Notes under the pieces: generated by a model
Told to the model about the DNA's origin: nothing
What the model saw: only the letters and a program-made list of their open reading frames with translations
Databases searched by the model: none
In this document: positions 43,056-50,433 of the stretch, piece after piece
Position numbering within the stretch: position 1 is the first letter of the stretch
Layout: each line of letters starts with the position of its first letter
Position numbers and translations under genes: made by a program
Assembly: GCA_028864975.1 (NCBI GenBank)
Contig: JAGWLG010000002.1
Span: 32,001 to 96,000, forward strand
Direction of reading: 5' to 3'
DNA: 64,000 nucleotides
From: Thermoplasmata archaeon
GTDB lineage: Archaea > Thermoplasmatota > Thermoplasmata > Lutacidiplasmatales > UBA184

Positions 43056-46000
43056 ATGGCAAGGAACATGCAGAGGACAAGAACGAACTACGCCGAAGTT
43101 GCGACGATCGCGCTCCTGGGCCTGGTGCTCCTGGGACTCCTCACGCCTGGACCGCTCCGTTCCATGGTCGCCCAAGGCGCGCAAGGGGCCGCTCCCACGC
43201 CCGTCGCCGTCGGGGCGCTGCAGGCCGCCTCGGCCGGCGCGGGGCAGGGGGCCCCCTACGCGGTACATGGGGTCTCGCTCCACCCGCTCAGCGTCGGGGC
43301 TTCGGCCTCGGTAGGGACCTCCCGGGCCCCCCTGGCCTCCGGGGCTTCCCTCGCGGCGGAAGGACCTTCAGCCTCCGTCCCGAACGCCATCAGCCTGGGA
43401 AGCAGCTGGGCCGGGATCAACGCGGCCACCGGTTGCGCCTGTTTCCCACCAGATGGAGCGGAGGGGGAAGGCAACGGCTACGTCGTCCAATCGGTGAACC
43501 TGTGGTACCATGTCTGGACCACGGGAGGGACGTCGCAGTGGAGCGAGTCCGCGTCGACCTTCTTTGGCACGAGCGATGGCCTCTCAGACCCCAAGGTCTT
43601 CTACGACAACCAGACCTCGCGCTGGTTCACCTCGTTCCTTGATGTGACCAACAACCACCTGTGGATTGCGGTCTCCAAGACCTCGACGCCCACGCAGGGA
43701 ACGAGCAACTGGGTCATCTCCGACCTTCCAGGACCATCGAACGGGGACCTCCCGGACCAACCGATCCTCGGGGTGGACGCGAACAACGTGGTCCTTTCCA
43801 CGAACGATTTCTCCTCGACGGCCTTCGACGGCGCCGAGGTCTTCGTTGTCAACAAGACCGCCGTAATGGGGTCCGCCCAGACCGCGTGGGGCTGGACGTG
43901 GGGTCCCAACAATAACTATGGTTCGATGCATCCTGCCTACCACCTCGACGCGACGAACACGATGTGGTTCGCCACCACCTGTGGAGGGGCTGGGACCAAC
44001 TGCACCTGGCCGATTGCTGTTGGGAAGCTCACGGGCTCGCCTCCCGCGACCCCGAACTTCGTGGTCTACAACTACTGGACCTGGACGAACTCGTCTTCAC
44101 AGCTCCCGCCCGCCGTGGGATTCCAGAAGGGGAGCACGGTCAAGCTCGACACCGGCGATGACCGGGTGAGCTCCGCCACCTGGACGAACGGGGTCCTCTG
44201 GGTCGCCGCGGACGACAGCTGTCGCGCCAGCACCGGCTTCGCGAGCTGCCTGCACCTCTGGTCCTTCTCCACCTCCGCCGGCACGCCGAGTAAGGTCCAG
44301 GACTTCAAGTGGGAGGACAAGGCGAACAGCTTCGACGGCTACCCTTCCGTCATCATCGACAAGTACGGGAACGTCGGCGTCTCCTTCGAAGAGGCGAGCA
44401 ACGCGACGTTCCCCAGCACGTACGTCACGGGGCAGGCCACGAGCGACCCTGTCAATACCCTAGAAGCGGCTACGCTCGCGAAGGCGGGGGGCGGAGCGAT
44501 CACCGCGACCCAGAGCAACTTCTGCGCCGGGGTGATCACCTGCGCCCGATGGGGGGACTATTCGGGCTCGTCGGTCGACCCCACCAACCGGAATCAGTTC
44601 TGGATGGAAGCAGAGGACGGCCCGGGGGCCGGCGATAGCTACTGGGCGACGTGGGTCCAGGAGTTCCAGTTCCCATACCCAAGTGGTACCCCCACGGTCA
44701 ACTTCGCCCTCTCCCCGGCGAGCGGGGCGGGCTCGATCTCCTTCAACAGCGTGACCTACTACAACGGCGGCTCGACCAGCATCGCGACGGGGTCCTACCC
44801 TCTGTCCGCGACCACGAACGCCGGATGGCACTTCTCCTCCTGGTCGACGACGGGAGGTCTCTCCGTGGGGGCGAGCGGGCTCACCGTCTCCTCCTCCGGT
44901 ACGCTTACCGCGACCTACACGCAGTACGCCAAGGTGACCTTCGCGATCAACCGTGCCGCCTGCGGGCCGATCACGTTCAACAGCACGACCCAGGCCAACG
45001 CTTCGAGCGCGTCGTACTACACGTCGAGCTCGCCGTTCACGGCGAGCATCCCTGCGTGCGGAGGTGAAACGTTCAGCTCTTGGGCCGTGACGGGCGGAGT
45101 GAGCGTCGGCTCGCCGACCGCGCTCAGCACCTCCGTCACGCTCACGGACAACGGGACGCTCACCGCGAACTTCGTAACGGGCTCTGTCGACGTGGTCACG
45201 GTGGCGATTGCCCCTGGTGCGGGGGACGGTTACGTCACGCTCAGTGGAACCCCCTACTTCAACGGGAACACGGCGAACCTCGCCGCGGGGAGCTACCCGC
45301 TCGCGTTCGCAGCGTCACCGGGTTGGGCGTTCTCGACGTGGTCGGCCACGGGCGGCCTCACCATCGGGGCCGGGACCCTGGCTGTAAGCTCCTCGGGGAC
45401 CCTCACGGTCACCTTCGTGCAAGACCCGACGCTCAGCTTCACGGTGAGCCCAACCTCCTGCCAGCCGATCACCTTCAATGGCAGCACGCCCTGGAACAGC
45501 GGGACGTCGGGGAGCTTCTACACCTCGGGGAGCCCGTACACCGCGTCCGTCGCGGCGTGCTCCGGGTACAGCTTCAGTTCGTGGAGCACTACTGGAGGAG
45601 TAGCCGCCGGCAGCCCCTCCGCCACGAGCACGCCGGTCACGCTGACCGACAACGGCACCCTGACCGCGACGTTCACCGCTTCGTCGGGTGTGACGGTGTC
45701 GTTCACGATCTCCCCCGCGTCGCCCTCGTCGGGCGGATCGGTCACCCTGAACGGCGTGACGTACTACAATGGAGGGTCGGTCTCTATCGCCACGGGGACC
45801 TACACGCTCTCCCAGACCCCCGCCCCCGCCTTCCGGTTCTCCTCGTGGGCCTTCGCCGGTGGGGTCGCGCTCTCGGGCGGCAGCTTGGTCGTGACCGGCG
45901 CCGGGACGGTCACTGCGAACTACGTAGCGGTCTACGGGGTGGCCTTCTCCGTGGCCCCCGCCGCGTGCGCCGCCACCTCGGAGGTCCAGTTCAACGGGAC

Positions 46001-47480
46001 GAACTGGGCGAATGCCGGGAGCGGCACGTTCGCGGGCCTGACCACGAGCGCGCTCGCGGAGCACTGCAACGGCTACCACTTCTCCTCCTGGACCAACTCG
46101 GGGGGCGTCACGGTATCCGGGAGCGCTTCCAACCCCACTTCGACCACGCTCGCGGGGAACGGAAGCCTGGGCGCGACCTGGGCGGTGAACGGCACGACCA
46201 CGTTCTCGATCACGCTCGTCGCTTCGCCCGCGAGCTGCGGACCGATCTCCTTCAACGCGGGGAGCTATGCGAGCGGGTCCTCGGTCACGATCGCAGCAGG
46301 AACCTACGCCCTCTCGGTGGGCTCGTGTTCCGGGTACTCCTTCTCGAGCTGGTCGGCGACGGGATCGAACGTCGTGGCGTTGCCCTCCGCGTCGAGCACG
46401 AGCGTGACCATCGCCTCCGCCGGGACCCTCACGGCGACCTTCAGCTCCGCGACCACCTATGCGGTCACCGTCTCGACCGCGCCCGCCAGCTGCGGGTCGG
46501 TGACCATCAACGGCAACACCTACACGAACGGGATGACCGCCAACCTGGCGGCCACCACGTACCCCATCACGACATCGGCCTGCTCGGGCTACTTCCTCGT
46601 CCCGAGCTTCGCCTTGACCGGCGGGGTCAGCCTGAATGCCGCGCATACCCAGCTTACGGTCTCGAACGCGGGCACGCTCGCGATGACCTTCGCAACGACC
46701 TTGACCGGTCAAGTGAGCGCCACCCCCGCCAGCACCACCACGGGCTCTGCCGTCTCCTTCACCCTGACCTTGAGCGGCGGGTTGGGCCCCTACGTGGCCA
46801 CCTGGAACTTCGGTGATGGTAGCTCGTGGGCCACCACGAACCTCACCTCGACGAGCGGCACCGAGAGCCACACATTCGGTAGCGCGAACACGTTCACGGT
46901 CACGGTGACCGTCCGCGACAGCGTCGGTCAGGTCATCAGCGGCTCCGTGCCGATCCAGGTCAGCTCGAGCTCCGCGGCAGGCTCCCCCATCCCGCTCTGG
47001 GCCCTCGGACTGCTCCTGCTGGTCGTGGTGGCCGCTATCGTCGCCACGGTGTTGCTCGTCCGACGGCGCAAGAAGTCCCAGGAACTCCTCGCAGGTCCCA
47101 ACGCGGCCGCCGGAGCTGCCTACGAGCCTGTGCCGTTCCCGTCCCCCGCCGGCGGCGCTCCGCCGCCGCCCCCGCCGACCTACGGTGCCACGATGGCTCC
47201 GGCGCCTCCACCGCCGGTCACGAGCGCCCCTCCCCCGGTGGCCACGCAGGCGGTCGCGCCCATGCCAGCCCCCGCGCCATTGCCACCGCCCGCTCCGGTC
47301 ACTCCACCGCGCCCGAGCGCGGCCCCTCGGCCAGGTCCCTACCTCACCGAGCGGCAGCGAAGAGCGCAAGAGGCGGCCGCCGCGGCCCCCGCCACGGGAT
47401 CCGCTGCGACGGAGCCTCCCCCCTCGACCTCGACCCCTTCCGAAGGGAGCGGGGGGGCGACCGACGGGAACTCGGGCTGA
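43056..47480 (+). CDS. Large cell-surface protein: secreted N-terminal domain, 8 beta-rich repeats, PKD-like domain, TM anchor, Pro-rich tail
   Basis: Signal/TM at the N-terminus; S/T/G-rich with many N-x-S/T sequons; repeats with an FSSW core; WNFGDG (PKD); C-terminal TM followed by RRRKK. Confidence 0.88.
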   Translation: MARNMQRTRTNYAEVATIALLGLVLLGLLTPGPLRSMVAQGAQGAAPTPVAVGALQAASAGAGQGAPYAVHGVSLHPLSVGASASVGTSRAPLASGASLAAEGPSASVPNAISLGSSWAGINAATGCACFPPDGAEGEGNGYVVQSVNLWYHVWTTGGTSQWSESASTFFGTSDGLSDPKVFYDNQTSRWFTSFLDVTNNHLWIAVSKTSTPTQGTSNWVISDLPGPSNGDLPDQPILGVDANNVVLSTNDFSSTAFDGAEVFVVNKTAVMGSAQTAWGWTWGPNNNYGSMHPAYHLDATNTMWFATTCGGAGTNCTWPIAVGKLTGSPPATPNFVVYNYWTWTNSSSQLPPAVGFQKGSTVKLDTGDDRVSSATWTNGVLWVAADDSCRASTGFASCLHLWSFSTSAGTPSKVQDFKWEDKANSFDGYPSVIIDKYGNVGVSFEEASNATFPSTYVTGQATSDPVNTLEAATLAKAGGGAITATQSNFCAGVITCARWGDYSGSSVDPTNRNQFWMEAEDGPGAGDSYWATWVQEFQFPYPSGTPTVNFALSPASGAGSISFNSVTYYNGGSTSIATGSYPLSATTNAGWHFSSWSTTGGLSVGASGLTVSSSGTLTATYTQYAKVTFAINRAACGPITFNSTTQANASSASYYTSSSPFTASIPACGGETFSSWAVTGGVSVGSPTALSTSVTLTDNGTLTANFVTGSVDVVTVAIAPGAGDGYVTLSGTPYFNGNTANLAAGSYPLAFAASPGWAFSTWSATGGLTIGAGTLAVSSSGTLTVTFVQDPTLSFTVSPTSCQPITFNGSTPWNSGTSGSFYTSGSPYTASVAACSGYSFSSWSTTGGVAAGSPSATSTPVTLTDNGTLTATFTASSGVTVSFTISPASPSSGGSVTLNGVTYYNGGSVSIATGTYTLSQTPAPAFRFSSWAFAGGVALSGGSLVVTGAGTVTANYVAVYGVAFSVAPAACAATSEVQFNGTNWANAGSGTFAGLTTSALAEHCNGYHFSSWTNSGGVTVSGSASNPTSTTLAGNGSLGATWAVNGTTTFSITLVASPASCGPISFNAGSYASGSSVTIAAGTYALSVGSCSGYSFSSWSATGSNVVALPSASSTSVTIASAGTLTATFSSATTYAVTVSTAPASCGSVTINGNTYTNGMTANLAATTYPITTSACSGYFLVPSFALTGGVSLNAAHTQLTVSNAGTLAMTFATTLTGQVSATPASTTTGSAVSFTLTLSGGLGPYVATWNFGDGSSWATTNLTSTSGTESHTFGSANTFTVTVTVRDSVGQVISGSVPIQVSSSSAAGSPIPLWALGLLLLVVVAAIVATVLLVRRRKKSQELLAGPNAAAGAAYEPVPFPSPAGGAPPPPPPTYGATMAPAPPPPVTSAPPPVATQAVAPMPAPAPLPPPAPVTPPRPSAAPRPGPYLTERQRRAQEAAAAAPATGSAATEPPPSTSTPSEGSGGATDGNSG
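44695..46700 (+). repeat. Eight tandem ~80-aa beta-rich protein repeats (InlB B-repeat-like)
   Basis: Recurrent pattern V-x-F-x-x-x-P...G-x-I-x-F-N...F-S-S-W-x-x-T-G-G...G-T-L-T-A-x-F; boundaries approximate. Confidence 0.75.
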
Positions 47481-47483
47481 GGC

Positions 47484-48764
47484 TCAGGAGGGGCGAGGCT
47501 CCGCGGTCCCGTCGAGCCTCCAGAGGGCTCGGCCCACCGTGGAGAGGGCCCCGGTCAGCAACAGTCCTCCCCCGGCCACCTCGAGCGCGAACGAGATCCC
47601 TCGGTAGGTGATGAGGAGCGCCCCCACGACCTGGGCCACGGGCATCACGGCATAGCTCAGGATCCCATCGATGGAGAAGTAGCGCCCGCGCATCCGCTCG
47701 GGGACGATGGTCTGGGCCGTCGTGAGCCAGGTCGTTCCCGCGACCTGCATGACCAGGCTGAAGGCGAAGACGATCGGGACCGAGAGGTAGAAGGAGCCTG
47801 ACCGCGAGAGGGCGAGCAGCAAGACCCCGCACACGACGCCGTACCCAAGGGTCCAGACCTTGCCCGCGTGCTTGACGGCGCGGGTCCTGCCCACGAGCAG
47901 GCCGCCTGCGGCGGTCCCCCCGGTCATGGTCGCGAGGAACAGCCCGAAGGTGAGCGGAGTGCCGTGGAGCCCGAGCGTGACGTAGACGACGATGAACCAG
48001 AGGAAGATCGAGGAGAAGAAGTTCATGAAGAGGGCGGAGATGGAGAGCTCGAAGAGCCCCTTCGAGGAGAGCAGCCAGCGCCCGCCTTCCGCGATCTCCG
48101 ATAGCATTCGCCGACGTGGTACGGACGCCTCCTCGAGCTTCCGAGGGAGGCGCTTCGTCCCGACGCTCACCGTGAAGACCAGGGCGGCGGAGAGCAGGAA
48201 CGTGAGCGTGTTGTACAGCAGGCTCAGGACGACGCCCGCCACGAGGAGGAACGTCCCCGCGATGGAGTTCGACAGCATCGAGATGATGGACCGGGAGGAG
48301 CGGACGAGACCGTTCGCGTCCGCGAGCTGATGCTTCGGGAGGATGGAGGGGATCAGCGACTGCTCGGCCGGGGTGAAGAGCGTACCGACGCACCCTGAGA
48401 CGAAGGCCACGACGAGGAACATTGGGAGGCTGAACCCCCAACGCCAGAACGTGAACGCGAGGGCGCCGATGGCCCCCGCGCGCGCGAGGTCGCTCGCGAC
48501 CATGACCCGTCGACGGTCGTAGCGGTCGACCCACACGCCCGAGGGGAGGCTCATGACCACGATCGTGACCGTGGTGACGATCCCCACGAGGGCGATCGCG
48601 AAGGCGGACCGGGTCGAGGAGAAGACGATCCACGAGATCGTGACGCTGGCGATGGCGCCGCCGCTGATCGAGGTCGCGCCGGCGAGGAAGAGGCGCAGGA
48701 AGTTGCGGTCCCGCAGGACCGAAGCGAGCCCCACGCCCGGCGCGGAGGAGGGGGACGCGCCCAT
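47484..48764 (-). CDS. MFS transporter (DHA3/H+ antiporter-like)
   Basis: LRDRNFLRLFLA, GVWVDRYDRRRVMV-SDL-RA, QTIVPERMRGR; about 12 TM segments. Confidence 0.9.
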   Translation of the reverse strand: MGASPSSAPGVGLASVLRDRNFLRLFLAGATSISGGAIASVTISWIVFSSTRSAFAIALVGIVTTVTIVVMSLPSGVWVDRYDRRRVMVASDLARAGAIGALAFTFWRWGFSLPMFLVVAFVSGCVGTLFTPAEQSLIPSILPKHQLADANGLVRSSRSIISMLSNSIAGTFLLVAGVVLSLLYNTLTFLLSAALVFTVSVGTKRLPRKLEEASVPRRRMLSEIAEGGRWLLSSKGLFELSISALFMNFFSSIFLWFIVVYVTLGLHGTPLTFGLFLATMTGGTAAGGLLVGRTRAVKHAGKVWTLGYGVVCGVLLLALSRSGSFYLSVPIVFAFSLVMQVAGTTWLTTAQTIVPERMRGRYFSIDGILSYAVMPVAQVVGALLITYRGISFALEVAGGGLLLTGALSTVGRALWRLDGTAEPRPS

Positions 48765-48801
48765 GCACCCCTCTCACGGAGGTGGAGGGTGACCGTGCCC
48801 C

Positions 48802-49524
48802 TCACACCTCGAGCCGGACGACCTCGCGCCCTCCTTCCTTCCCCAGGAGGCGTGCGACGAGCCCCTCGGCGTCCTTCGCCTTTCCGCGGTGGTAACCTTT
48901 GAGCGCGGCTTCGCGCAGCCCATCCGCCCCCATCCCGATGACCTCGGCCTCCATCTCTCCGATGGACCCGCTGGGGTCGACAGCGAATAGGCGAGGCTCG
49001 TGGGCGAGCGTCGAGGCGATGAGGAGCGAGCAGCCGAGGGGGCGATCCTCACGCTTCAACGTGTGTTCCCAGAAGTACCGCGAGGCCTCGTCGACGAGCT
49101 CGTCCGCGCTCTTCCAGGACTGGCGGCGAAGGTGCCGCACGACCGAGCGCCCGTCGGCGACGAGCCCGACCTTGAGGACCGCCACGTGAGGCGAGAGACG
49201 GTCGATCTTCCCGCCCGACCTCACGGTGGGGTTCGGTCCCGCGCTGTAGGCAGCGCCAAGGACCACACCTTTGTCGAAGACCGCCCCTGCGATAGGAAGG
49301 CCGCGCCGGGAGGACTCCCGGGCGTACTCGATCTGGTAGATGCGGCCGTCGGGGGAGAAGTGGTTCACCTTGTCGAAGTCCTGGGCCATCGGGCCGGCCT
49401 GCTGGGCGTACGCCACGATGGCAGCGCGGACGAGCTCGGCCTTGGTGCCGAAGGGGCCCGTGCGGACGAGGGCGTCCAGGTAACGGTCTATCTCGGGTGG
49501 GACGGCGAGTCGAATCTCTGCCAT
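48802..49524 (-). CDS. Ribbon-helix-helix domain fused to a divergent proteasome alpha-subunit-like domain
   Basis: N-terminal IRLAVPPEIDRYLDALVRTGPFGTKAELVRAAI (RHH pattern); then FSPDGRIYQIEYARE, GLVADGR, RPLGCSLLIA, PRLFAVDPSG, IGMG, which parallel conserved archaeal alpha-subunit blocks. Confidence 0.82.
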   Translation of the reverse strand: MAEIRLAVPPEIDRYLDALVRTGPFGTKAELVRAAIVAYAQQAGPMAQDFDKVNHFSPDGRIYQIEYARESSRRGLPIAGAVFDKGVVLGAAYSAGPNPTVRSGGKIDRLSPHVAVLKVGLVADGRSVVRHLRRQSWKSADELVDEASRYFWEHTLKREDRPLGCSLLIASTLAHEPRLFAVDPSGSIGEMEAEVIGMGADGLREAALKGYHRGKAKDAEGLVARLLGKEGGREVVRLEV

Positions 49525-49586
49525 ACGTCGAAGCTCCGCTAGGACGTATGTTTCACGTAGTCTTGAAGGATGATGTACGTGAAACA
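49522..49586. promoter_or_regulatory. Inverted repeats upstream of the RHH-alpha gene (candidate operator)
   Basis: TGTTTCACGTA (49549-49559) / TACGTGAAACA (49576-49586), 16-nt spacer; also CATACGTC (49522-49529) / GACGTATG (49543-49550). Confidence 0.65.
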
Positions 49587-49641
49587 CGGCGTATTCGCGG
49601 AGACTTCCTCCGACCCGCTGACGCTCCCGAGGAGCGATCGC

Positions 49642-50433
49642 CTACCTTCGGGCGACGAGGATCACGTTGGAGAGCTCTCGCCATAGCACGGCGGACTCCC
49701 GGAACCCCGCCGCCCGCAGGTACCGCCGGTGCTCCTCCTCCGACGGTTCGACCTCGTGGTGGGTCGGCTCAGGGAAGAGGGCGTTCCGTCTCTTGAGCGC
49801 CTCGTGCAGCGACGGGTCGCGGCCGGCCTCGCGCCACCATTCGCGCCACTCGAGGGCGGACCGGCGGACCTCAAGGACCCGTTGTCGTCGATGCAACGTC
49901 TCGGAAGCGAGTTCGCGAAGACGGGGGCTCTCCTCTCCCAGAGGGGCCTTGTCGCCGTTGAGCAGGACCCCTCCGGGGCGGAGCAAGGTCCGAAGGTCTC
50001 GGTAGACACGCCGAAGTTGTGGGGGAAGGAACCAGTGCAGTGCCGTGGTCGAGAGGACCGCGTCGAAGCGCCCCGGGGGCAGGGCGCGGGCCCACGTGGG
50101 AGAGCGCAGGTCGCTCTCCACCCAGCGCAGCCGTTGGGCGACCGAGGGGGGCGCCGACGTCCTCCCGATCGTGAGGAGGAGCGGGTCGATGTCCACGGCG
50201 ACCACGCGGGCCCGTGGGAACCTCGCGAGCAGGCGGAAGGAAAGCGAGCCCGGGCCGCATCCCACGTCCAGGGCGCGGAACGTCGAAGGAAGACCGGCCT
50301 CGAGCAGGTCGAACATCGCCGTGAAGCGAGCTTCGCGGGAGGGAATGTAGCGCGTCTGCATCCGGTCCCACGAGGTCAGGAGGGCCCGGGCACGGGCCCG
50401 GGTGAGCGGGGGAGTAGGGGGAGGAGGGGACAT
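49642..50433 (-). CDS. Class I SAM-dependent methyltransferase
   Basis: ALDVGCGPGSL, VAVDIDP, FDAVLSTTALHW, LLRPGGVLLNGD. Confidence 0.88.
   Translation of the reverse strand: MSPPPPTPPLTRARARALLTSWDRMQTRYIPSREARFTAMFDLLEAGLPSTFRALDVGCGPGSLSFRLLARFPRARVVAVDIDPLLLTIGRTSAPPSVAQRLRWVESDLRSPTWARALPPGRFDAVLSTTALHWFLPPQLRRVYRDLRTLLRPGGVLLNGDKAPLGEESPRLRELASETLHRRQRVLEVRRSALEWREWWREAGRDPSLHEALKRRNALFPEPTHHEVEPSEEEHRRYLRAAGFRESAVLWRELSNVILVARR

Follow-up and report, generated by a model that had tools for sequence, protein, structure and literature searches.

A family of archaeal proteins joining a ribbon-helix-helix domain to a proteasome alpha-like fold, and its candidate autorepression operator

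We analysed a stretch of 64,000 nucleotides from a Thermoplasmata archaeon (GenBank assembly GCA_028864975.1, contig JAGWLG010000002.1, positions 32,001 to 96,000; hereafter the window) and found that a gene on its minus strand, at 48802-49524, encodes a ribbon-helix-helix (RHH) domain followed by a truncated paralog of the proteasome alpha subunit. An earlier note, made from the letters of the window, had proposed this combination of domains, and the call was right. We refer to the protein as RHH-alpha. It is probably an autorepressing RHH protein that uses a non-catalytic alpha scaffold to oligomerise and, probably, to receive a signal, and it is probably not a standard 20S subunit. Current databases name such proteins either as a CopG family RHH or as a 20S proteasome subunit and miss the combination.

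The gene is a single open reading frame (ORF) of 240 codons plus a stop, running from the ATG at 49524 to the stop codon at 48804-48802, and the ORF and its translation bear out the earlier description of it as uninterrupted. We take 49524 as the true start because every relative begins with M-x-E-h-R; a longer frame from the in-frame GTG at 49587, which would add 21 amino acids (aa), was dismissed on the same grounds. Translation from an internal Met (M46, at 49389), raised earlier as something that would undo the fusion, is unlikely because M46 is not conserved among relatives. Contigs from 4 DNA runs in 2 studies (mine drainage and soil metagenomes) span 48700-49700 without a break, some of them possibly being the source of the GCA_028864975.1 assembly itself, and more than 150 protein clusters in total have the RHH-alpha architecture. 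A chimeric assembly, the other worry of the earlier note, was dismissed on this evidence. We consider the fusion ORF confirmed.

The RHH domain is the most conserved part of the protein, with a mean column identity of 63 % vs 53 % for the whole protein, and relatives align over it gap-free. Two AlphaFold models give the layout expected if the first 45 aa fold as an RHH: an extended strand at about aa 3-8, a helix at 10-22, a G23-x-F25 turn and a second helix at 28-42 (to 43 in one delimitation), the helices having a predicted local distance difference test (pLDDT) of 81-94. Across 97 relatives, R5, G23 and R33 are invariant, and at least 90 % retain E3, F25, K28 and E30. Polar and hydrophobic residues alternate along the strand, which carries the invariant R5 and near-invariant E3 on its outward face.

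Searches with RHH profiles (Pfam RHH_1, PF01402, and ParD, PF03693, among others) returned two weak matches for the full protein of the window, VapB at E 0.1 in Pfam and ParD at E 0.015 in NCBIfam. When the N-termini of 23 relatives were searched, RHH_1 was matched by 12 (best 5.8e-5), ParD by 8 and RHH_8 by 3, and the ortholog from Aciduliprofundum boonei scored above the RHH_1 gathering threshold (23.1-26.1 bits vs 20.5). A PDB search with a profile built from the N-terminal domain retrieves ParD antitoxins. In Foldseek, the matches that rank highest for the isolated N-terminal model are almost all RHH proteins (ParD, NikR, PutA, Arc, CopG) with a root-mean-square deviation (rmsd) of 1-2.7 A, among them ParD, with a template modelling (TM) score of 0.77 and a probability of 0.90, and NikR, with an rmsd of 1.0-1.2 A. 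None of these matches reaches E<=0.001 (the E-values are 0.4 or above) because the domain is short, and it is the ranking that carries the result. Taken together, the profile matches in orthologs and the models lead us to accept aa 1-45 as a predicted ParD/CopG-type RHH domain, in line with the CopG/Arc-type assignment of the earlier note.

RHH-alpha shares with the RHH repressors (Arc/Mnt, CopG, omega and the ParD-type antitoxins) a strand-helix-helix of equal size, ParD, CopG and Arc being the best structural matches and the ParD and RHH_1 profiles matching its relatives, as well as short repeats one helical turn apart that cover its own promoter. It differs from them in that no toxin or partition partner adjoins the gene and in that the C-terminal part is a 195-aa proteasome fold where theirs is a short tail. 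A reading as a ParD-type antitoxin was dismissed: no toxin-like (ParE/RelE-like) neighbour gene was seen, the neighbours across loci being MFS, PAC2, GLUG-repeat, DUF389, L7Ae and TyrRS genes. The nearest architectural analogue is NikR, in which an N-terminal RHH, among the closest structural matches to ours, is followed by a larger, ligand-sensing C-terminal domain that builds the oligomer and, as it could in RHH-alpha, may gate DNA binding. The C-terminal domains are unrelated, ACT-like in NikR and a proteasome fold in RHH-alpha. We also observed stand-alone RHH proteins of 48-83 aa (P0172, P0178 and others) that share an M-x-E-h-R...G-x-F-x-S-K-A-E-h-h-R signature with the fused domain and are possible donors or relatives of the fused module.

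The remaining part of about 195 aa is alpha-like. Pfam places the proteasome domain (PF00227) at aa 74-227 with E 2.3e-18 and the alpha N-terminal signature (PF10584) at aa 54-70 with 31.3 bits vs a cut-off of 27.7, and the best PDB sequence and Foldseek matches are archaeal alpha subunits such as those of Thermoplasma acidophilum (8F7K/1PMA), which substantiates the alpha-parallel blocks noticed earlier. An AlphaFold model of the protein (mean pLDDT 85.9) matches archaeal alpha at a Foldseek TM of about 0.7 and 30-31 % identity, with the H0 helix at aa 61-72 preceded by a flexible linker (aa 46-57, pLDDT <50). The protein aligns to alpha and not to beta, the beta equivalog model giving 23 bits only. 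There is no N-terminal Thr nucleophile; the domain has an alpha-type N-terminus with H0, preceded by the RHH. The degree of divergence is nevertheless large vs canonical alphas: 83.6 bits against the NCBIfam TIGR03633 equivalog (cut-off 287.35), 90.7 bits against the NF003075 subfamily (cut-off 219), and 67 bits for PF00227 vs 185.9 for the psmA region of the same genome.

Compared with PsmA (TIGR03633/NF003075; 1PMA, 8F7K), RHH-alpha shares the fold between H0 and H4, carries the alpha N-terminal signature and retains the motifs SPDGR..Q.EYA, GLVAD, RPLG and DPSG. It is unlike PsmA in having a 45-aa RHH before the gate segment and in a set of local losses that we located by alignment to the psmA of its own genome: FDK (F50 D51 K52) stands in place of YDR, 9 aa are deleted at the end of H1, the YTQxGGV that precedes RPFG is replaced by HTLKRED, and about 40 aa are absent from the C-terminus, so that the chain ends one strand past H4 and the canonical S10 and H5 are missing. 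The altered gate motif, the shortened H1-H2 region and the truncated C-terminus had each been noted before and all three hold. Homologs catalogued so far (HslV, Anbu, BPH, connectase and 22 families from a published survey considered below) belong to the same proteasome-fold superfamily and likewise put the fold to non-canonical use, but they are beta-like, whereas RHH-alpha is alpha-derived and without the N-terminal nucleophile.

Residues associated with the alpha ring are retained. F50, D51, P58 and Y67 align with Y8, D9, P17 and Y26 of T. acidophilum alpha, the gate cluster, and K106, conserved in at least 90 % of members, aligns with K66, the alpha-pocket lysine for the HbYX (hydrophobic residue, tyrosine, any residue) motif. 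HbYX tails dock in alpha-ring pockets lined by K66. We modelled aa 46-240 as a homotrimer from a 97-row alignment and obtained an interface score (ipSAE, interaction prediction score from aligned errors) of 0.76 vs 0.00 for the best control. In a calibration that used two copies and the proteins' own alignments, unlike this three-copy job, 20 of 30 proteins whose solved structures are same-chain pairs attained this score, compared with 1 of 23 whose structures are single chains. The trimer runs agree in at least 93 % of contacts, with a partner pLDDT of at least 87. The middle copy uses aa 50-62/145-159/185-194/204-212 on one face and aa 64-74/97-102/121-130/154-164 on the other, and because the two interfaces use different faces the predicted association is head-to-tail and ring-like, with lateral contacts of the alpha-ring type. 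The interfaces contain the invariant or near-invariant residues D51, P58, G60, R61, Q64, Y67-E70, G120, D124, R161, S185 and Y211.

To the question of whether RHH-alpha is simply the alpha subunit of its genome with an extension, the answer is clear: the window genome (G000; 3.6 Mb, 90 % complete) also holds a canonical psmA and two psmB, so RHH-alpha is an extra paralog. Canonical alpha and beta subunits likewise accompany RHH-alpha in each of five other carrier genomes. A protein search yielded more than 110 clusters at 90 % identity, 238-253 aa long and covered over their full length, and all those with a source name are from Thermoplasmata or Thermoplasmatota. A pattern specific to the RHH found 37 loci in species-representative genomes, labelled Thermoplasmata or Methanomassiliicoccales metagenome-assembled genomes, all with the fusion and 2 of them truncated. 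These two family members (L033, L039) stop after 152-153 aa, within the alpha-like domain, owing perhaps to a frameshift, to pseudogenisation or to an error of assembly. The distribution is patchy, since only 6 of 401 genomes in an even sample of the phylum carry the gene. One carrier is in culture: A. boonei T469, whose Aboo_0723 (WP_008082465.1) is named 'ribbon-helix-helix protein, CopG family' in RefSeq and '20S proteasome A and B subunits' in UniRef.

The family extends beyond one phylum. Searching 1.84 billion representatives with a profile of the RHH domain revealed longer fusions (262-301 aa) whose alpha C-terminus is complete. One such protein is from Hodarchaeota, its near family comprising about 45 clusters with labels that include Promethearchaeota and Hodarchaeota, and its carrier genome has four canonical proteasome genes besides RHH-alpha. 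The Asgard form reaches 190 bits vs the subfamily cut-off of 219. A survey across Thermoplasmata, as had been suggested, accordingly finds the architecture in many protein clusters there but not confined there, and the idea of a Thermoplasmata-only oddity does not stand.

When the alpha domains alone were placed in a beta-rooted tree, the 42 fused forms all grouped in one clade, with a support of 80 in the Shimodaira-Hasegawa-like approximate likelihood ratio test (SH-aLRT), and all 23 canonical alphas, from Thermoplasmatota, Crenarchaeota and others, grouped in the other (SH-aLRT 85). The Thermoplasmata short form is monophyletic (100) on a stem branch 1.09 long, and RHH-alpha evolves much faster than the canonical alphas. 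This topology is consistent with a single old origin of the fusion, at moderate support and with long branches involved. The family appears to be undescribed so far. Full-text literature searches returned no description of an RHH-proteasome fusion, of Aboo_0723 and its accessions, or of Asgard alpha paralogs. A 2021 survey listed 22 families of proteasome homologs, picked by active-site conservation, and none of them is described with an RHH or DNA-binding domain (Fuchs, Alva and Lupas, PMC8665760).

The promoter of the gene points to a link with DNA. We compared the last 90 nucleotides (nt) before the start in 38 promoters. The top 5-mers are ATACG, AATAC, TACAT and TACGT, and in an unbiased count ATACG occurs 37 times in the proximal vs 2 times in the distal part. 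TAC[GA] occurs 93 times vs 28 in shuffles. The spacing is precise: 47 pairs of TAC[GA] lie at exactly 11 nt (shuffle mean 0.23), 23 at 22 nt and 5 at 33 nt; spacings of 10 or 12 nt do not occur. As a consensus the unit reads AAAATAC(G/A)T(T/C)AAA, with boxes at -46, -35 and -24 from the ATG in the window clade, and most members have 2-5 ATAC(G/A)T-like boxes at 11-nt spacing between the TATA box and the start codon. At the position of the TATA-like element of the window, close relatives read CTTTATAGC, TTAAATAT or CTTATAAG.

The same layout recurs at a distance. Genes of the A. boonei clade have TTTAAATA, then three ATAT(A/C)CAT boxes at 11 nt, then GGAGG and the ATG. In the Asgard genes a TATA-like element is followed by a pair of (G)TATCC boxes at 11-nt spacing, by GGAGG and by a start that reads ..GTATG, and a ..(A/G)CGTATG start context recurs in many relatives, Asgard included. 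Because the A. boonei clade and the Asgard genes share this layout, the array stays with the gene in both phyla. In the window, the boxes also form a perfect 11-bp inverted repeat ahead of the gene (49549-49559 / 49576-49586). A strain variant, T>C at 49580, is present in 2 of 4 metagenome runs and falls in the upstream arm (TACGT to TACGC); it breaks the perfect repeat and keeps the box consensus.

As a within-locus control, we counted 49 pairs in 5.3 kb of promoter vs 9 in 527 kb elsewhere, a 540-fold enrichment, and 22 triples vs 0; several of the 9 are inverted boxes of the same promoters. Genome-wide, the best-scoring box pair in the whole 3.6-Mb window genome is the RHH-alpha promoter itself, and in three other carrier genomes overlapping (triple) arrays occur solely at the gene's own promoter. 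No box arrays lie upstream of psmA, psmB1, psmB2 or the four PAC2 paralogs of the window genome, and outside their own promoters the pattern matches in genomes G055, G365 and G156 are at the control level. Tandem one-turn spacing is the classical layout for RHH repressors such as Arc and Mnt. Since the array is 540-fold enriched and essentially confined to the gene's own promoter, a one-turn-phased array between TATA box and start beside an RHH gene points to an autorepression operator, as far as sequence can tell.

Some further sites deserve mention. The second-best box site of the window genome (contig C115:47137-47200; 6638-6700 in L058) is intergenic and has GATACGC twice at 11 nt with an inverted GCGTATC 22 nt on, 42-94 nt upstream of a gene for a PKD/Kelch surface protein of 1088 aa. 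The site may be a second target, or the match may be due to chance. A box pair on contig C52 near a PAC2 gene was rejected as a chance match, as it sits within a coding region. Among three A. boonei-clade genomes the sole promoter-like extra match (L085; G156:C181:398-414, minus strand) is intergenic, beside a serine hydroxymethyltransferase-like gene; in it, a TATA box is followed by a pair of GTATACAT boxes at 11-nt spacing and an inverted TGTAT. The Asgard RHH-alpha genes (L089-L093) are preceded, at a distance of about 80-100 nt, by a conserved ..TTCTTCAT motif that marks the start of a small divergent ORF, called at 40-53 aa in L090 and L091, which points to a conserved divergent small gene adjoining the Asgard form.

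We found no universal partner gene across loci; conserved synteny is limited to an upstream TyrRS in the nearest clade. In the window, an MFS transporter gene lies directly downstream and, from the short gap alone, is probably co-transcribed with RHH-alpha. MFS genes of three unrelated lineages occupy this slot, on the same strand, in different subclades (the window; L005/L027/L034/L051/L053; L029/L035), which is commoner than expected of random neighbours; because the three lineages are unrelated, a single conserved MFS operon was rejected. Elsewhere the same-strand downstream gene encodes a GLUG-repeat protein of about 1,100 aa (one clade) or DUF389 (A. boonei), or there is none. Beyond the MFS gene of the window, a plus-strand gene at 43056-47480 converges on its 3' end and encodes a protein of 1474 aa, secreted or anchored, in which Ig-like segments are repeated many times and the tail is rich in proline.

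One clade, labelled Methanomassiliicoccales, offers the sole contextual link of RHH-alpha to the proteasome system. In 9 of 9 loci the downstream gene is of the PAC2 family (PF09754, E about 1e-43), its start overlaps or abuts the RHH-alpha stop codon, and its product ends in ..MYG, an HbYX motif. Judged from this overlap, the PAC2 gene is translationally coupled to RHH-alpha. PAC2/PbaA-type proteins dock on alpha rings via HbYX tails. The PAC2 homologs (PbaA/PbaB) are thus a candidate partner of RHH-alpha and not a relative: they combine the coupling and the MYG tail with the retention in RHH-alpha of the K66 equivalent, within the limits that the coupling is found in one clade and that the PAC2 paralogs of the window genome lie elsewhere in the genome, without upstream boxes. 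These four paralogs (contigs C97, C79, C95 and C52) have three HbYX-like C-termini (..SMYG, ..EMYR and ..SMYG) and one ..TYIG.

Table 1. Coordinates of the RHH-alpha gene, its protein segments, promoter elements and downstream neighbour in the window
Feature	Position	Strand	Basis
MFS transporter gene, 37 nt downstream	47484..48764	-	Pfam MFS_3/MFS_1, neighbour survey
Whole ORF: RHH-alpha fusion protein, 240 aa + stop	48802..49524	-	ORF and translation; full-length relatives of 238-253 aa
Non-catalytic alpha-like core, aa 61-240, H0 to one strand past H4	48805..49344	-	Pfam/NCBIfam, AlphaFold 2 (AF2)/Foldseek, psmA alignment, trimer model
Linker and alpha 'gate' segment (F50 D51 K52 ... S57 P58 D59 G60), aa 46-60	49345..49389	-	pLDDT, conservation, psmA alignment
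RHH domain, aa 1-45	49390..49524	-	AF2 models, Foldseek, RHH_1 matches in relatives, conservation
Inverted box ACGTAT overlapping the start codon	49523..49528	-	Upstream comparison, coordinates
Shine-Dalgarno-like GGAG	49537-49534	-	Coordinates
Operator-like box ATACGT, T of TACG at -24; 11 nt from the -35 box	49549-49544	-	Coordinates, family-wide periodicity
Operator-like box CTACGT, T of TACG at -35	49560-49555	-	Coordinates, family-wide 11-nt periodicity
Weak TATA-like element CCTTCAAGA	49561..49569	-	Upstream comparison; inferred from position only
Inverted box copy TGTTTCACGTA, upstream arm of the 11-bp inverted repeat	49576..49586	-	Repeat search, coordinates
Distal forward box ATACGC, T at -69	49589..49594	-	Coordinates

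We hypothesize that RHH-alpha acts as follows. The RHH domains would pair as dimers, each dimer reading one box via the invariant R5 and the near-invariant E3. Neighbouring dimers, one helical turn apart over the region from TATA to start, where transcription is expected to start, would block transcription of the gene, and the block would extend to the following gene, here the MFS transporter. The alpha-like domain would supply head-to-tail self-association of the alpha-ring type, bringing several RHH dimers together and resulting in cooperative binding to the box array. With the RHH joined straight to the gate segment, the heads that bind DNA would occupy the ring face that, in a real proteasome, receives the activators. 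Input or effector functions probably also fall to the alpha-like domain, in which the equivalents of the gate cluster and of the HbYX-pocket lysine are kept; PAC2-HbYX coupling is present in one clade. For the DNA-binding regulator that the earlier note envisaged, with an alpha fold as its oligomerisation module, the phased array at the gene's own promoter now speaks strongly, if indirectly, in favour of the first part; the oligomerisation is supported by the model alone.

Several points weigh against this explanation. The first 50 aa of the window protein, searched alone, match no Pfam family even at E<=10. DNA binding is inferred wholly from a conserved cis-element beside an RHH gene, and about 10 of the 37 loci have no forward box pair under the strict pattern, some of these having inverted or variant boxes. 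No second target promoter was established in the window genome and three other carrier genomes, so that a purely regulatory role would be one without a visible regulon. Since alpha rings are solved structures, the trimer may have passed from the model's memory of them, and a heptameric ring would leave the RHH domains odd in number, hard to square with obligate pairing of such domains. As for the input side, the PAC2 operon counts as a single evolutionary event, confined to one clade, and the number of PAC2 copies does not follow the presence of the gene: carriers hold 2-4 paralogs and non-carrier relatives 4, which leaves no phyletic link.

One alternative keeps RHH-alpha within the proteasome, as an alternative 20S alpha subunit whose rings cap beta rings, with the RHH over the gate as a plug or as a tether to DNA or RHH partners and the array setting the level of the protein. 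The alpha N-terminal signature, the conserved equivalents of F50/D51/P58/Y67 and K106 (K66), the predicted alpha-ring-like lateral interface, the full-length alpha domain of the Asgard form (190 bits vs the 219 cut-off) and the operon with a PAC2 assembly-chaperone homolog in one clade would all suit such a subunit. We regard it as unlikely. In solved 20S structures the H1/H2 side of alpha faces the beta ring, and the 9-aa deletion at the H1 end and the lost YTQxGGV fall on that side, which disfavours incorporation into ordinary core particles. The absence of the C-terminal S10 and H5, scores of 84-91 bits vs equivalog and subfamily cut-offs of 287 and 219, the separate long stem (1.09) with an evolution much faster than that of canonical alphas, the retention of a canonical alpha in every carrier genome examined and the patchy occurrence in 6 of 401 genomes point the same way, and the earlier suggestion of an alternative alpha that links 20S particles to DNA is not supported. 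Alternatively, RHH-alpha may be a non-transcriptional part of proteostasis, a docking or decoy platform for HbYX-tailed PAC2/PbaA-type chaperones, Cdc48 or PAN, its RHH only limiting its own level as in antitoxins and partition proteins. That the array is found only at the gene's own promoter, that at least 90 % of members conserve the K66-equivalent lysine, that in one clade a PAC2 gene whose product has a ..MYG tail is translationally coupled to RHH-alpha and that the window genome encodes three PAC2 paralogs with HbYX-like tails would be explained by such a platform, to which we assign a low probability: the coupling is restricted to one clade, with MFS, GLUG-repeat, DUF389 or nothing elsewhere, and the number of PAC2 paralogs is equal in relatives with and without the gene.

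It is also conceivable, if very unlikely, that the N-terminal domain does not bind DNA and is a handle for dimerisation or for plugging the gate, the boxes being read by another factor or acting in the RNA of the 5' untranslated region. The N-terminus of the window protein is below threshold for RHH profiles, and part of the array may fall in the transcribed leader, as judged from TATA positions; however, orthologs exceed the RHH_1 threshold, the strand alternates as described with R5 and E3 outward, and one-turn tandem spacing is typical of Arc/Mnt-like repressors. Moreover, the boxes accompany the gene in two phyla and do not occur in other parts of the loci, and the natural single-nucleotide polymorphism in the inverted repeat breaks its hairpin potential and keeps the box consensus. 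Finally, the RHH-alpha oligomer might be a DNA-bound sensor of the proteasome system, its alpha-type pockets binding HbYX partners (PAC2/PbaA-type, Cdc48/PAN) or free subunits. Pocket occupancy would alter the seating of the RHH heads on the box array, and the assembly state or load of the proteasome would feed back on transcription. We consider this unlikely; if true, archaea, Asgard included, would have an equivalent of the Rpn4/Nrf1 feedback of eukaryotes, made from a proteasome subunit itself.

Proteasome alpha subunits are known as gate and docking rings. To our knowledge, no proteasome alpha subunit carries a DNA-binding domain, and we know of no transcription factor built on the proteasome fold. 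In RHH-alpha the RHH sits directly on the gate segment, and the arrangement is conserved in two archaeal phyla, one of them the Asgard lineage. Together with a testable operator, a cultured representative (A. boonei, Aboo_0723) and the PAC2 operon link in one clade, the family offers a concrete handle on whether archaea couple the state of the proteasome to gene expression. At a minimum, the proteasome fold would here be put to a new use, that of a scaffold on which a repressor oligomerises.

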